Notes: a model not told the origin generated them from the sequence alone. A DNA stretch of 64,000 bases from an uncultured Planctomycetota bacterium (GCA_963845755.1 CAWJTV010000020.1:640001-704000), one strand, 5' to 3'; positions 27,383 through 36,631 are shown, counted from the first letter of the stretch. Numbers and translations are program-made.

Positions 27383-28426
27383 ATGCCGACACAGTCTCCA
27401 CCGCGTCCCATCCTCGCACCGAAGGCCATCCTCCCGGCCAAGGCGATTCTGCCGGCCAAGCCAATTCAACCGATGCGGGCGGGTCGGCGTGGCGGGGTCA
27501 TCCAGGGCGCATTTGCCGGCGGACGGCCGCGAATGCCGATGGTCGCCAGCCGACCTGGGTCCGGGCCCATTCAGCCGTCCGCCCCGATGTCGGCGACAGC
27601 GACGCCCCTCCCGCCCGAGTTCGGCGGCTTCCGGCCCGTGATGCCCGGTCAGCGAATGCCCGAGGTGATCCAGCGCAAGATGGAATCGCTCTTCAAGGCC
27701 AGCTTCTCCGATGTCCGAATTCACGTCGGACCCCAGGCCGGCTCGATCGGCGCCCTGGCGTTTACTCAGGGATCCGACGTCTACTTCGCCCACGGCCAGT
27801 ACAATCCGACGACCCCGCAGGGCCAGCGTCTGCTGGGCCAGCAACTGGCGCACGTGGTCCAGCAACGATCGGGCCGAGTCCGCAACCCGTACGGCGCCGG
27901 CATGGCGGTGGTGACCGACCCGATTCTGAGGGCCGAGGCCGAGATGATGGGCACGCGGGCCGCGATGCTCCCGCCTGCCCAACCCAAGATGAGCGGTTCC
28001 CAGAAGGGCTCGATCGGGGCCGCGCAGAAACCTTCCCCGATCCTTCCCCGGCGGCCCGGAGTCGATGCGACGGCATCTCCCACGGGCACGAAGACCGCCC
28101 CGATCCGTCCTGGGGCGGCTGGCCCGATCCTGCCGAAGAGCGCCGATACGTCCATTCCCAGCCCAATTCTCCCCAGGCGGCCAGATTCGGCCACCTGGAC
28201 TCCGCCGGCGACCCGGCCGAAATCGGCCATGTCACCCTCGGGTGCCATCCTCCCATTCCGGTCGACGGCGGCGCTTTCGCCTCCAGCCCCGATCCTTCCC
28301 CGTGGACTGAAATCGTTCCAGGCTGCGGCTCAACCCATGATGGCGCTGGGGGCCGCGGTCGTCGCCGGCCGGCAGTTGGTTGGCACCGTCGTCGGCTCCG
28401 TAGGGCGCTGGATGTTCGGGTCGTAA
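27383..28426 (+). CDS. DUF4157 (eCIS core) protein 1, degenerate HExxH, short hydrophobic C-terminal peptide
   Basis: KMESLFKASFSDVRIH..GALAFTQGSDVYFAHGQY..LLGQQLAHVVQQ; intact 347-aa ORF. Confidence 0.85.
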   Translation: MPTQSPPRPILAPKAILPAKAILPAKPIQPMRAGRRGGVIQGAFAGGRPRMPMVASRPGSGPIQPSAPMSATATPLPPEFGGFRPVMPGQRMPEVIQRKMESLFKASFSDVRIHVGPQAGSIGALAFTQGSDVYFAHGQYNPTTPQGQRLLGQQLAHVVQQRSGRVRNPYGAGMAVVTDPILRAEAEMMGTRAAMLPPAQPKMSGSQKGSIGAAQKPSPILPRRPGVDATASPTGTKTAPIRPGAAGPILPKSADTSIPSPILPRRPDSATWTPPATRPKSAMSPSGAILPFRSTAALSPPAPILPRGLKSFQAAAQPMMALGAAVVAGRQLVGTVVGSVGRWMFGS

Positions 28427-28660
28427 CGACAACGGCGCGGCGGTTCTTGCCGCAACGAATTGACCCGGGAAGGTGGGTCCTGTGAAATGAACCGTGGGTC
28501 GGGCTCTCCAGCCCGACGTCATGACCGGTCGGCACGAAAGTGCAACCGACCTCGAGATGACCCCTGGCCAGCGTACCGAGGCCGGCGCGAACGAATTGGC
28601 GGGCTATCCGTAGATGTGTTTTTCCGCGAGTCCACTTCTCTGTTGACGGAAGAGTCACCG

Positions 28661-33948: not shown

Positions 33949-34045
33949 AATTCCCCTGGCGTCAGGAAGAGGGCCTCCCTCCAGAGCCCGGTTACGTTGC
34001 GACAGTCTCTCGAGGCGCGTACGGGATTCTTGAGGTAAAGCAGGA

Positions 34046-36631
34046 ATGGCTCTTGTGGGCTACAACATGATGCCTTCGTCAGGTCCGATCACGCCCTTTC
34101 GTCCCGGCGGTCCCTCACGTGTCATCCAGGGCTACTTCCCCGGCGGCCAGCCGCGGATTCCTCAACCGGCCGTGGTCCAGGCAACGCGGCCCGTTGCTCC
34201 ACCGCCGCGGCCTTTACCGGTCCCTGCCCGTCTGGCAGCGGTCCAGCCGGCGATCGTCCCTGGCCGTAGGGTCGCGGTGCCGGCCGCTGGAAGGCCGGGT
34301 AGCCCCGCCAACAAACCCCAGCCGATCTTGCCGACCGCAGCCCGCCGCGGTCCCGTCCAGCCGTTCGCACCGGCCAGGCCGGCGCCTCCCGCCGCGATCC
34401 TCCCTCCGGCACCGTCGACGACACCGATCCAGCTTTCTGCGGGCAATGCCTTTGCCCTGCCGGCCGGTTTCCAGCTTCGGCCCTCCGCGTTGGGTCAGCG
34501 GTTGCCCGAATCGGTGCAGCGGAAGATGGAAGCGTTCTTCCGCGCGGATTTCTCCGATGTCCGGGTGCATGTCGGTCAAGAGGCGTCGTCGATCGGGGCC
34601 CTGGCATTCGCCCATGGCACGGACCTGTACTTCGCCCCCGGCCAGTACAATCCGCAGACGCCGCAAGGTCAGCGACTTCTGGGCCACGAGCTCACACACG
34701 TGGTGCAGCAGCGGGCCGGGCGCGTGCGCAATCCGCTGGGTTCGGGCGTGGCGGTCGTGCAGGATCCGATGCTGGAGACCGAGGCCGAGCGGATGGGGAT
34801 GCAGGCAGCCAGCTCAATCCTCCAAGTGCAGGCCAGGTTAGCGGCTTCGAGTCCGGTCAACCCTCGGAGGCAACTCGGTACCTCCGCGAGCGGGCACGCG
34901 CCCCGAGTCGCCGTGTTACCATGCCGTCCCAATCAGCCGCACGGCGGCATCGATCGATCGACTCAGCGAGCTCCGAGTTTAACCGGCATCGGCGACCGGT
35001 CAATCTTGCCGAAACGACCGCCCGGTCCCCACTCCACAATACAGCTCCTTCCCAACGTACTGGTCGAGGTGTTGCCGGGTACCAACCTGCGTGAGGCCCG
35101 GCATCCCCATTCGCTCAGAGATGCCACCGTATTCCGAGAGATTCCGACACCCGAGAGGCTCACGATCGACAAGGGGGAGATGATCGAATCGGGCCTCCAC
35201 AAGTCTGGTCATCATTCGGCGAGCGCTCAAAATGACTGGTATCGGGTCGTCTCGGATAGCAGCGGCAGTCTGAAGGCTCGTTCGATTTGGGTCCCTGCGG
35301 GAATGTTGAAGCCGGCGACGCGATCGACGCCGGCACGAGCGAGCTCACGACTCGATTGGATGGCGTGCCAACTGACGGACGGAAACCTATATGGCGTAAT
35401 CCCAGGGGATTCCTCTCGTCTGTACGGCCGGCGCGATGCGCCCCATCCCGAGCCACGGGGACTCTATCGCAAGGAGATGACGGTTGATACCTTCGGGCGG
35501 CCTGTCCAGGTCTGGACGCCGAACGTTCGACTCATTCACGATCGAGAGCTCAGCCCATCCGGGGCGGAGGGCGCTGCCGGCGCGGGCGAAGCCAGGAAGT
35601 TCTCCACGCTGAGGACCAGGATCAAGACGCTCCAGAAGGAGATCGATGGTGCAGTCAACCGCAAGGGTCGAGGAGGTCCATCGATGGGGCTTGTCGGGAT
35701 CAATGATTGCGATACCTGGGCGGGGGTGTTGCGAATGCTGATCACGGATGCACTCGCAGTCGAGGGAAAGGGCTCATCGATCAACTACAATCTTACCGAG
35801 GATGAGGACGAACGGTGCCGAGACCCCGGCAACATGGAGGTCGGATACACGATGCTGCAAATCCTCGGCAAGAAGGCCCGCTCGAGGCATCATGCGGCTA
35901 CGGTCGTCGCGAGGGATGGTGTAAGCGTCGTCACCCTGGAAGCTCACGTGGAAAAGTTGGGGCTGACTGCACCCGAGTTCCATATCTACGCCGGCGTCAA
36001 GGGATTCTGCTTTGTCAATAACGAAGGTGTAAAATACCTGAAAGACAATCAGGAGCGAGGGACCGTATATCGCCCTGGTAAGGACTGGATCTACGATGGG
36101 CGGTCGGAGGAACTTCGCAAGCTCCAGAAGGACGTGTCCAAGGCGAAGGACCTGCAATCGCTCCAGAAGATGATGACCCGTTTCATGGAATTCACGGCAC
36201 CTGGCGGCAAGGTACCGGGGTCCGCTGTGGGGTCGGTCCGAACACCGGCCCGTGTGGGAAGTTCTCCCCTGGCCACTGCGCCACCATCTGCGTCCCCGCC
36301 GCCCCGACCGCCGGGGAGCCCACCGACGTTGGTGCCGCCTCCGACAAGTGGCGGTGCCTTGGGTGGTCGCACTCGCTTTCAGGGCAACACCGAGCTGCGC
36401 TGTTACGTTGATCCCGATACGTCGGATCAGTATGACTCACTCGGAAGTTGGCGAGATGAGAGAAGAGGGGGTCGCTACTATCTGCTCAGGCGCCGTCGGG
36501 ACCACTTCCTGCTCAAGATCGACGACGTTACCAAGGAGGTTCTCGATGAGGACGACCATTCGCGAAGGGTTCGCCTCAATCAAGTGCGGTTCGATCCGGC
36601 GCTGTCACGAATCATCGATCCATTAAGTTAG
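34046..36631 (+). CDS. DUF4157 protein 4 with SH3b-like and putative papain-like (Cys-His-Glu) C-terminal domains
   Basis: Intact 861-aa ORF; LLGHELTHVVQQ; TNLR..DWYRV..WVPAGML; INDC..HHAATVVARDG..TLEA. Confidence 0.75.
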   Translation: MALVGYNMMPSSGPITPFRPGGPSRVIQGYFPGGQPRIPQPAVVQATRPVAPPPRPLPVPARLAAVQPAIVPGRRVAVPAAGRPGSPANKPQPILPTAARRGPVQPFAPARPAPPAAILPPAPSTTPIQLSAGNAFALPAGFQLRPSALGQRLPESVQRKMEAFFRADFSDVRVHVGQEASSIGALAFAHGTDLYFAPGQYNPQTPQGQRLLGHELTHVVQQRAGRVRNPLGSGVAVVQDPMLETEAERMGMQAASSILQVQARLAASSPVNPRRQLGTSASGHAPRVAVLPCRPNQPHGGIDRSTQRAPSLTGIGDRSILPKRPPGPHSTIQLLPNVLVEVLPGTNLREARHPHSLRDATVFREIPTPERLTIDKGEMIESGLHKSGHHSASAQNDWYRVVSDSSGSLKARSIWVPAGMLKPATRSTPARASSRLDWMACQLTDGNLYGVIPGDSSRLYGRRDAPHPEPRGLYRKEMTVDTFGRPVQVWTPNVRLIHDRELSPSGAEGAAGAGEARKFSTLRTRIKTLQKEIDGAVNRKGRGGPSMGLVGINDCDTWAGVLRMLITDALAVEGKGSSINYNLTEDEDERCRDPGNMEVGYTMLQILGKKARSRHHAATVVARDGVSVVTLEAHVEKLGLTAPEFHIYAGVKGFCFVNNEGVKYLKDNQERGTVYRPGKDWIYDGRSEELRKLQKDVSKAKDLQSLQKMMTRFMEFTAPGGKVPGSAVGSVRTPARVGSSPLATAPPSASPPPRPPGSPPTLVPPPTSGGALGGRTRFQGNTELRCYVDPDTSDQYDSLGSWRDERRGGRYYLLRRRRDHFLLKIDDVTKEVLDEDDHSRRVRLNQVRFDPALSRIIDPLS

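Follow-up and report, generated by a model that had tools for sequence, protein, structure and literature searches.

The question raised by this locus is why an uncultured Planctomycetota bacterium carries four genes of the DUF4157 family in a row directly before the genes of its type VI secretion system (T6SS). The locus lies in a stretch of 64,000 nt (GCA_963845755.1 CAWJTV010000020.1:640001-704000), which we analyzed as a whole and call the window; the array itself occupies positions 27383-36631. A first-pass annotation of the window had regarded the array as a family of cassette-swapping effectors delivered by this T6SS or by an unlinked extracellular contractile injection system (eCIS), probably against eukaryotes. 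We consider it rather probable that the array genes belong to a T6SS-associated, polymorphic clade of DUF4157 proteins. That is, a conserved leader and the DUF4157 domain would carry each protein to the T6SS, the HExxH site of the domain would free the payload, and gene 1 of the array would serve as a helper.

Structure of the array

A Pfam scan of the window detected PF13699 (DUF4157/eCIS_core; curated cut-off, 22 bits) in four co-oriented open reading frames (ORFs) of the plus strand, with scores of 78-94 bits. The four genes are as follows.

27383-28426, plus strand: gene 1, with a PF13699 match of 78.2 bits, the leader VIQGAFAGGRP, a short Pro-rich spacer, and a DUF4157 core whose site is degenerate
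28661-31057, plus strand: gene 2, with the leader AIQGSFPGGQP, a Pro-rich spacer, DUF4157 (HELTH), a GNAT domain, and a weak IPK-like end
31166-33104, plus strand: gene 3, with the leader in the frame starting at 31166 and the remainder in the frame 31368-33104, DUF4157 (HELTH), a C80-like domain, and a helical tail
34046-36631, plus strand: gene 4, of 861 amino acids, with a PF13699 match of 94.3 bits, a leader, a Pro-rich spacer, DUF4157 (HELTH), a linker, and a Cys-His domain

All four genes share the leader (V/A)IQGxF(P/A)GGxP, which takes the form VIQGxF in genes 1, 3, and 4, followed by Pro-rich spacers with ILP or AVQP units and by a DUF4157 core that spans approximately from LPExVQxKME to EAEAERMG. 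The zinc-binding motif HELTH is present in genes 2, 3, and 4, and QQLAH stands in its place in gene 1. When the copies are compared as DNA, their identity reaches 0.63-0.90 in a segment extending approximately from -120 to +240 nt relative to the DVRVH codons, and 0.2-0.3 outside this segment. Because the identity collapses about 240 nt past these codons, the module of the array ends sharply on its 3' side. The C-terminal parts are mutually unrelated, and their GC content (0.556-0.598 at 30000-30999, 0.526-0.584 at 32000-32999, and about 0.605 at 35000-36499) is lower than that of the N-terminal modules (0.67-0.72); the genome, of 14.3 Mb, has a GC content of 0.644.

These values agree with the first-pass annotation, which had described four co-oriented genes with a common leader, Pro-rich repeats, and a highly similar core, followed by divergent C-terminal cargoes of lower GC in copies 2 and 3. 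We find the cores to be 70-90% identical. The modular family with exchanged C-termini, which it called cassette-swapping, is real. The array of four genes is also present as described, but it had been overlooked that genes 2 and 3 are frameshifted, with three breaks, and that the site of gene 1 is dead and its payload missing. The arrangement of eCIS cargo proteins, namely a disordered N-terminus, DUF4157, and a variable C-terminus, is also that of the array genes, the disorder being judged from the Pro-rich composition.

Conservation of the array beside the T6SS

The T6SS genes that follow the array were identified by Pfam and are arranged in two groups.

37688-50475, plus strand: T6SS core operon with tssA (split), tssB, tssC1, tssC2 (split), tssE, tssF, tssG, hcp, vgrG (split), and tssK
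50495-52781, minus strand: a short tssM-like ORF (IcmF-related_N only) and tssL (DotU)

The start of tssA (ImpA_N, 115 bits) is at 37688, 1057 bp past gene 4, where the annotation had estimated about 1 kb, and this T6SS is the sole locus with VipB (sheath) in the genome. DotU is present alongside the tssM fragment; ClpV and TssJ were not identified for the T6SS of the window, and proteins with two AAA domains exist elsewhere in the genome.

We then surveyed 121 genomes of the order, which belong to one family. PF13699 was found in 25 of them (strongly in 20), Pvc16_N in 14, and VipB in 72. In several of the genomes with Pvc16_N, PF13699 and Pvc16_N lie 3 kb apart and represent classical eCIS-linked copies; four such genomes have no VipB. 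T6SS-adjacent arrays were found in three genomes of three genera, which are referred to here as G000 (the genome of the window), G071, and G014. The layout is the same in all three, that is, a QQLAH copy is followed by a number of HELTH copies and then by tssA-B-C1-C2 and the subsequent genes. G071 has at least 8 copies, located 7 kb before tssB/C. In G014 (two contigs, 96% completeness), each of the 7 copies is found next to the T6SS and a DUF4280 gene lies between the array and tssA, and no match to the three eCIS markers Pvc16_N, gp19 tube, and Phage_sheath_1 was obtained in this genome. The paralogues number up to 7-13 per genome.

The core of gene 1 lacks the catalytic His and Glu, with QQLAH instead of HELTH, and its tail consists of Pro-rich ILP repeats and a terminal hydrophobic stretch, without a payload domain. 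Orthologues of gene 1 lead the arrays in G071 (L009:7103-) and G014 (L012:10988-), likewise with QQLAH. The three QQLAH copies form a clade of their own, with a value of 99 in the Shimodaira-Hasegawa-like approximate likelihood-ratio test (SH-aLRT), and in each of the three genomes the QQLAH type is the copy farthest from the T6SS. We suspect that gene 1, which is dead and payload-less and yet kept at the head of the array, may act in trans as an adaptor or a plug, not as a toxin.

Related loci in other species

A profile from the leader to the core (A1) was built from 15 copies and used to scan one genome per species. Among the 72 loci obtained, 5 repeat G071 or G014, which leaves 67. The marker profiles for the T6SS were made from proteins of the window and of G014, and those for the eCIS from the proteins of an eCIS on contig C9 of G000 (described below), and thus from few sequences. 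For high-GC loci, strand-restricted ORF lists were used. The TssG profile drifted to 88 hits at its second iteration, and the counts are given with and without it.

At least two T6SS core markers were present within 10 kb in 37 of the 67 loci with TssG included and in 32 with TssG excluded, and tssB or tssC was present in 30. eCIS markers were found in none of the 67 loci. Because the eCIS profiles had been built from few sequences, 8 marker-free loci were additionally analyzed by Pfam, and none of their 125 ORFs matched an eCIS or T6SS family. These marker-free loci hold orphan copies near integrases, transposases, and kinases. The carriers belong to Acidobacteriota, Azospirillum and other Alphaproteobacteria, Polyangiaceae (Myxococcota), and Oxalobacteraceae, and include a metagenome-assembled genome of Verrucomicrobiales and two further Planctomycetota. 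In Alphaproteobacteria, the operon reads tssA-B-C-hcp-E-F-G-[DUF4157]-variable-clpV-vgrG-MORN-DUF4280, that is, the DUF4157 gene is placed within the core operon. The gene after such operon-embedded copies is not conserved and has no homologue in the window. The linkage of DUF4157 with the T6SS in relatives, which the first-pass annotation had proposed to survey, is therefore seen both in the layout kept in G071 and G014 and in the 32-37 of the 67 loci from other species.

As a separate observation, many operon-embedded copies of Azospirillum, Polyangiaceae, Oxalobacteraceae, and Acidobacteriota share an unannotated payload of about 150 amino acids with the motifs GYRLIVGxYxH, AGHxFV, and RQCxxFAxDV. 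The loci with this His/Cys payload are L026:9884-10939, L029, L030, L042-L044, L075, L084, L031, and L035.

A quick maximum-likelihood tree was made from 125 cores, after duplicates had been collapsed and after cores with fewer than 70 profile positions, as well as L021, L022, and L025, had been dropped. The array members of G000, G014, and G071 were labelled by hand as T6SS-adjacent, because the 20-kb loci had separated the arrays from the operons. All window copies fall in a clade of 108 rows, of which 57 are T6SS-adjacent, 51 are orphan, and none is eCIS-adjacent. A branch with a length of 1.06 (SH-aLRT 99) divides this clade from the other 17 rows, which include 7 eCIS-adjacent copies. The strict motif [VI][IVL]Q[GA]x[FY] precedes the core in 68 of the 108 clade rows and in none of the 17 others, which have a different starting motif.

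eCIS genes and other DUF4157 copies in the genome

No eCIS family was found in the window by Pfam. The earlier statement that there are no eCIS genes is thus true of the window, but a search of the genome revealed an eCIS on contig C9 (188580-213121; L001 and L002). This eCIS is apparently complete, with two sheath genes, two gp19 tube genes, CIS_tube/LysM, spike, gp25, Baseplate_J, Tail_P2_I, and Pvc16_N, and is without a DUF4157 gene of its own; an AAA ATPase lies about 1.5 kb outside the fetched stretch. Upstream of the eCIS there are a Ser/Thr kinase and an extracytoplasmic function sigma factor, and at its distal end several ORFs of 300-600 amino acids without a Pfam match.

In total, 12 copies of DUF4157 are distributed over 7 loci of the genome, none of which is on C9, and the leader is found in all copies where the frame permits. 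A second array, with three leader-DUF4157 genes, is located far from any T6SS (L003, G000:C36:321492-325912; L007). Two payloads of this array and the payload on contig C33 share a second zincin-like domain with HExxH...NEGxTE.

Among the 30 genomes with a T6SS-adjacent copy, 12, including two complete genomes of 12-14 Mb, are without Pvc16_N. Co-occurrence with an eCIS is thus frequent but not required.

Proposed explanation and its alternatives

In each payload-bearing protein of the array, a VIQGxF leader is followed by a Pro-rich and probably disordered spacer, the zincin-like core of DUF4157, a linker rich in Pro, and finally a C-terminal payload that can be exchanged. This architecture, the existence of the clade, the synteny with T6SS genes, and the split from eCIS-linked copies are observed, and secretion by the T6SS, self-cleavage, the function of gene 1, and the type of target cell are predicted. 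We propose that the leader and DUF4157 together may function as an invariant carrier by which the protein is directed to the T6SS next to it, as the counterpart of the eCIS cargo in which DUF4157 lies between an N-terminal and a C-terminal domain. The HExxH core would then release the payload, possibly at the motifs of hydrophobic-hydrophobic-Gln-(Arg/Gly/Ala) type at the module borders. Such motifs are VIQG in the leader, P(I/V)QAK right after the core, and VVQR, VIQR, or VLQR directly before many payloads; the last type is also found in the consensus of the homologues of the gene 4 payload. That similar short motifs recur at the module borders speaks for self-processing, as a pattern and not a proof, and the idea follows an earlier reading of the domain as a releasing peptidase. 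In that study the zincin is predicted to release the C-terminal toxin, and many of the proteins lack immunity genes (PMC3482391). Loading of eCIS cargo into the tube requires a system-specific disordered N-terminus but not DUF4157 (bioRxiv 10.64898/2026.05.27.728243).

Several points weigh against this explanation. Loading through a disordered N-terminus has been demonstrated for eCIS cargo only (bioRxiv 10.64898/2026.05.27.728243). In the assembly, two of the four array genes and several T6SS genes are frameshifted. PF06761 (IcmF-related) had no match in G000, G014, or G071, and TssM is represented by an N-terminal fragment only (50495-51574). No named T6SS effector family was recognized, because the Pfam scans returned nothing beyond PF13699, GNAT, and two weak payload matches. 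The 12 copies of the genome include 8 that are away from the T6SS, and the 51 orphan rows of the 108-row clade are not beside a T6SS either. The 67 loci were picked by their similarity to the query, so that their contexts are independent of that choice and their relatedness is not. Furthermore, all 14 genomes of the order with Pvc16_N also have PF13699, Pvc16_N is found somewhere in 18 of the 30 genomes with T6SS-adjacent copies, and G000 and G071 each carry an eCIS without an eCIS-type DUF4157 of its own.

A wider form of the explanation is that the VIQGxF leader and the DUF4157 core constitute an unrecognized, cross-phylum cargo-loading module of the canonical T6SS. The T6SS and the eCIS would then share an ancestral way of committing polymorphic toxins to a contractile tail, by means of a disordered N-terminus and a zincin carrier from which the payload is later freed, with leaders specific to each system, and gene 1 would again be a helper. 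We put this forward tentatively, at somewhat short of an even chance.

Alternatively, the array proteins might be cargo of the unlinked eCIS on C9, alone or in addition to that of the T6SS, with the position beside the T6SS representing an effector island; we regard this as unlikely. Loading by the eCIS is possible in this genome, given the C9 gene set with its nearby AAA ATPase; this gene set has no DUF4157 gene of its own. The domain order of the array proteins is the established one of eCIS cargo (PMC8213781; bioRxiv 10.64898/2026.05.27.728243), the missing immunity genes are typical of many eCIS toxins (PMC3482391), and the above counts of Pvc16_N in the order (14 of 14) and among the T6SS-adjacent carriers (18 of 30) point in the same direction. 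In contrast, G014 has its 7 copies with none of the three eCIS markers, the other 12 of the 30 carriers are without Pvc16_N, and none of the 67 closest loci is beside eCIS genes. In addition, those DUF4157 genes of this family that are linked to an eCIS group apart and differ at the N-terminus. Thus, with respect to the delivery by the T6SS or an unlinked eCIS that the first-pass annotation had allowed, the synteny, G014, and the 32-37 loci argue for the T6SS part, whereas the eCIS on C9 and the 8 copies off the T6SS weaken it.

It is quite improbable that the DUF4157 module is an accessory enzyme of the T6SS, such as a maturation or wall-remodelling protease required for assembling or firing the machine, and that the versions with payloads are secondary fusions and not injected effectors. 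In several phyla the core operon does contain payload-less copies of about 170-260 amino acids, placed after tssG and ahead of clpV or vgrG, and gene 1 also has no payload. However, the C-termini are highly variable, lower in GC, and similar to enzyme folds (GNAT, C80-like, and papain/CHAP-like), the paralogues number up to 7-13 per genome, and the catalytic His and Glu are missing from gene 1. The non-conserved gene after the operon-embedded copy also fits an effector slot better.

The payloads and the frameshifts

Gene 4 is the sole intact payload-bearing copy of the array, and its payload is a Cys-His domain. This domain, which weakly resembles papain/CHAP hydrolases, has about 230 amino acids (about 35333-36085), and is followed by a Pro-rich region and an unannotated C-terminal domain. 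We found 95 homologues of it, and PF13699 was N-terminal in 21 of the 40 that were scanned. The residues G-N-D-C and H are invariant, with C126 and H187 in 51 sequences. The AlphaFold2 model had a pLDDT (predicted local distance difference test) of 92, and its best matches, which were weak, were CHAP endolysin domains (Foldseek E 4e-3, TM 0.21-0.28; weak VIA-align Z values of 5.8, 5.7, and 5.2). The model thus weakly suggests a papain/CHAP-like fold, whose nearest structures cut the bacterial cell wall.

The sequence of gene 2 is spread over three frames (28460-29542, 29377-30822, and 30305-31057), with breaks near 29366-29377 and at approximately 30690-30760; its PF13699 match, of 91.3 bits, is in the ORF 28460-29542. 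The GNAT domain matched Acetyltransf_1 (PF00583) with 41.1 bits against a cut-off of 20.7, and the order DUF4157-GNAT also occurs in G014 and G071. The end of gene 2 matched inositol polyphosphate kinase (IPK; PF03770) with 16.9-18.0 bits, under the cut-off of 22.2, in the C-terminal half of the profile only. This IPK-like region is itself frameshifted, its N-terminal fragment has no IPK match, and an intact homologue of it was not found among the fetched loci.

Gene 3, for which the Atlas lead scored 0.88, has a PF13699 match of 89.9 bits and a break at the CCCC run at 31343-31346. At 32154-32678 it has a domain resembling Cys proteases of clan CD/C80, which matched Peptidase_C80 with 19.1 bits as part of the whole protein and 22.3 bits when excised, below the cut-off of 23.8. 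Peptidase_C80 is the Cys protease domain, with a His/Cys dyad, by which MARTX and large clostridial toxins cleave themselves; its activation depends on inositol hexakisphosphate. The AHG and SCQ motifs of the gene 3 domain come after predicted strands. Its AlphaFold2 model, made from two sequences, had a pLDDT of 51 and was excluded from the fold search. Word-based searches for homologues of the gene 3 and gene 4 payloads returned only the proteins themselves and one relative, P0003, a leader-DUF4157 protein with the C80-like domain of gene 3 at its end.

With regard to the target cells, eukaryotic prey is loosely suggested by the missing immunity genes together with the C80-like, IPK-like, and GNAT matches, and the bacterial cell wall, likewise loosely, by the CHAP-like structural neighbors of the gene 4 payload; every one of these signals is weak. 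The eukaryotic targets of the first-pass annotation are not upheld: they depend on matches below the thresholds (Peptidase_C80, 22.3 against 23.8; IPK, 18.0 against 22.2), and the sole modelled payload weakly resembles structures that cut the bacterial wall.

The inspected breaks in genes 2 and 3 sit at short C/G runs, with frames that are open and conserved on both flanks. Split domains were also seen in unrelated genes of the assembly, namely tssC2, vgrG, CIS_tube on C9, and DUF4157 on contig C29, and in G071 and G014. Because split domains are this common, the breaks are more likely technical than a sign of real decay. One soil-metagenome study has short exact pieces of the array region, and its contigs span none of the three break sites; among the listed RNA runs, none contained the region. 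That the array is decaying, with real frameshifts in genes 2 and 3, tssA, tssC2, and vgrG and a non-functional locus, is very unlikely: the disruption of two array genes by three breaks in all, the split ORFs bearing VipB, Phage_GPD, and ImpA_N, and the fragmentary tssM would fit it, but the split domains in unrelated loci and in the two other genomes, and the position of the breaks at runs where indel errors of assembly would fall, do not.

Intergenic regions and neighboring genes

The gap after gene 3 is 941 bp and that after gene 4 is 1056 bp, and both hold dispersed repeats.

33840-33950, no strand assigned: palindromic dispersed repeat of about 110 bp in the gap between genes 3 and 4, with about 70-95 blastn hits genome-wide
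36630-36945, no strand assigned: dispersed repeat of about 150 bp in two tandem units in the gap between gene 4 and tssA, with 200-450 genome-wide hits per position

Using the GC bias at the third codon position (GC3) as the criterion, we found no coding-like ORF in the four gaps of the array. This result agrees with the first-pass annotation, which had noted no small immunity-like ORF: no ORF in the gaps has the GC3 bias of the genome. Immunity genes concealed in the two 1-kb gaps were considered and rejected, given the dispersed repeats and ORFs without the codon bias of the genome. The palindromic repeat has a high depth in soil metagenome contigs, and the 150-bp repeat recurs on contig C31, immediately before the DUF4157 copy there.

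58603-58992, minus strand: PAAR-like DUF4280 gene (PF14107, 119.6 bits)

This gene is orthologous to the one between the array and tssA in G014 (75% identity over 133 amino acids by tblastn). A complex prediction of the DUF4280 protein with the leader-DUF4157 module gave a score of 0.00 without controls, which counts neither way on binding. The same-strand ORFs of 800 and 539 amino acids that come after the DUF4280 gene (55261-58672, minus strand), which have no Pfam match, could encode another spike-linked effector.

Other features were noted in the window. Two tandem tssC genes (39552-42745) are present, a trait shared with G014, G071, and several further genomes from the order. A cNMP-binding/DUF1003 gene at 52661-53632, possibly a regulator responsive to cyclic nucleotides, flanks the T6SS, as it does in G014 (L011:1913-3031). 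On the minus strand at 9527-22755, a run of six large ORFs that overlap one another (13 kb altogether) and have beta-helix/NosD-like matches looks like one or two giant genes of secreted or adhesin type with frame breaks.

Comparison with known systems

If the proposed explanation is true, the annotation of DUF4157 genes would change in soil Acidobacteriota, Planctomycetota, Myxococcota, and Alphaproteobacteria, and a searchable N-terminal marker of T6SS effectors would be gained for phyla with hardly any known effectors. It would also allow a direct test of whether the T6SS loads long, partly unfolded cargo like eCIS tubes. The payloads are mostly unannotated families, for example the Cys-His domain of gene 4 and the H...C domain of many operon-embedded copies.

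MIX, FIX, and RIX are conserved N-terminal marker domains of T6SS effectors with polymorphic C-terminal toxins, encoded near T6SS genes. The array module differs from them in that it is another sequence family, includes a zincin core, and has a T6SS role that is predicted.

The roles given to DUF4157 in the literature covered are those of an N-terminal marker of eCIS toxins, a C-terminal toxin on VgrG/PAAR or a cargo in the proteobacterial T6SS, and secreted proteins of haloarchaeal contractile injection systems (CIS). At present the domain serves to flag eCIS cargo, and eCIS toxin predictors based on machine learning rely on it (PMC11297309). Because DUF4157 has precedents in the T6SS setting (PMC6899460; PMC11566945), the term undescribed system, used in the first-pass annotation, is too strong. 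In the passages, titles, and abstracts covered, a carrier clade that has DUF4157 at the N-terminus, a leader of its own, and a place in canonical T6SS operons is not described.

The closest T6SS precedents are the C-terminal metallopeptidase of VgrG2b and the effectors of Tpe1 type (Wood et al. 2019, PMC6899460), in which a DUF4157-annotated HExxH domain occurs in T6SS clusters as a cargo or as a VgrG/PAAR fusion. In contrast, the peptidase there is a C-terminal, periplasmic toxin with an immunity protein (PMC6899460), whereas here it is an N-terminal carrier before other payloads. A search of PDB sequences with the module profile, including the solved VgrG2b domain, gave no match at E <= 1.

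The polymorphic toxins with a metallopeptidase of the Photorhabdus virulence cassette (PVC) type (Zhang, Aravind et al. 2012, PMC3482391) resemble the array proteins in having a constant N-terminal zincin and recombining C-terminal toxins. In that study, however, the N-terminal domain is a marker of PVC/eCIS export, and the T6SS is invoked only where the copy is C-terminal and its fusion partner is a base-plate or tail protein.

The contact-dependent CIS of haloarchaea, the 'archaeal T6SS' (PMC11566945), likewise has several dispersed DUF4157 proteins linked to a cell-bound contractile system. These proteins are secreted in a sheath-dependent manner (PMC11566945). The haloarchaeal machine is of the eCIS/CIS lineage and not TssA-M, and for some of its toxins a protective partner is encoded downstream (PMC11566945).

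A further likeness is to AlgoCIS Cgo1/Cgo2 and the eCIS-associated toxins (Geller et al. 2021; Danov et al. 2024), which have a disordered N-terminus, a DUF4157 HExxH core, and a variable toxin-like C-terminus, with several paralogues per genome and often without an adjacent immunity gene (PMC8213781, PMC11297309, bioRxiv 10.64898/2026.05.27.728243). The array clade differs from them in lying beside or within canonical T6SS operons (with eCIS genes, 0 of 67), in forming a separate clade of the core, and in its VIQGxF leader (0 of 17 outside the clade).

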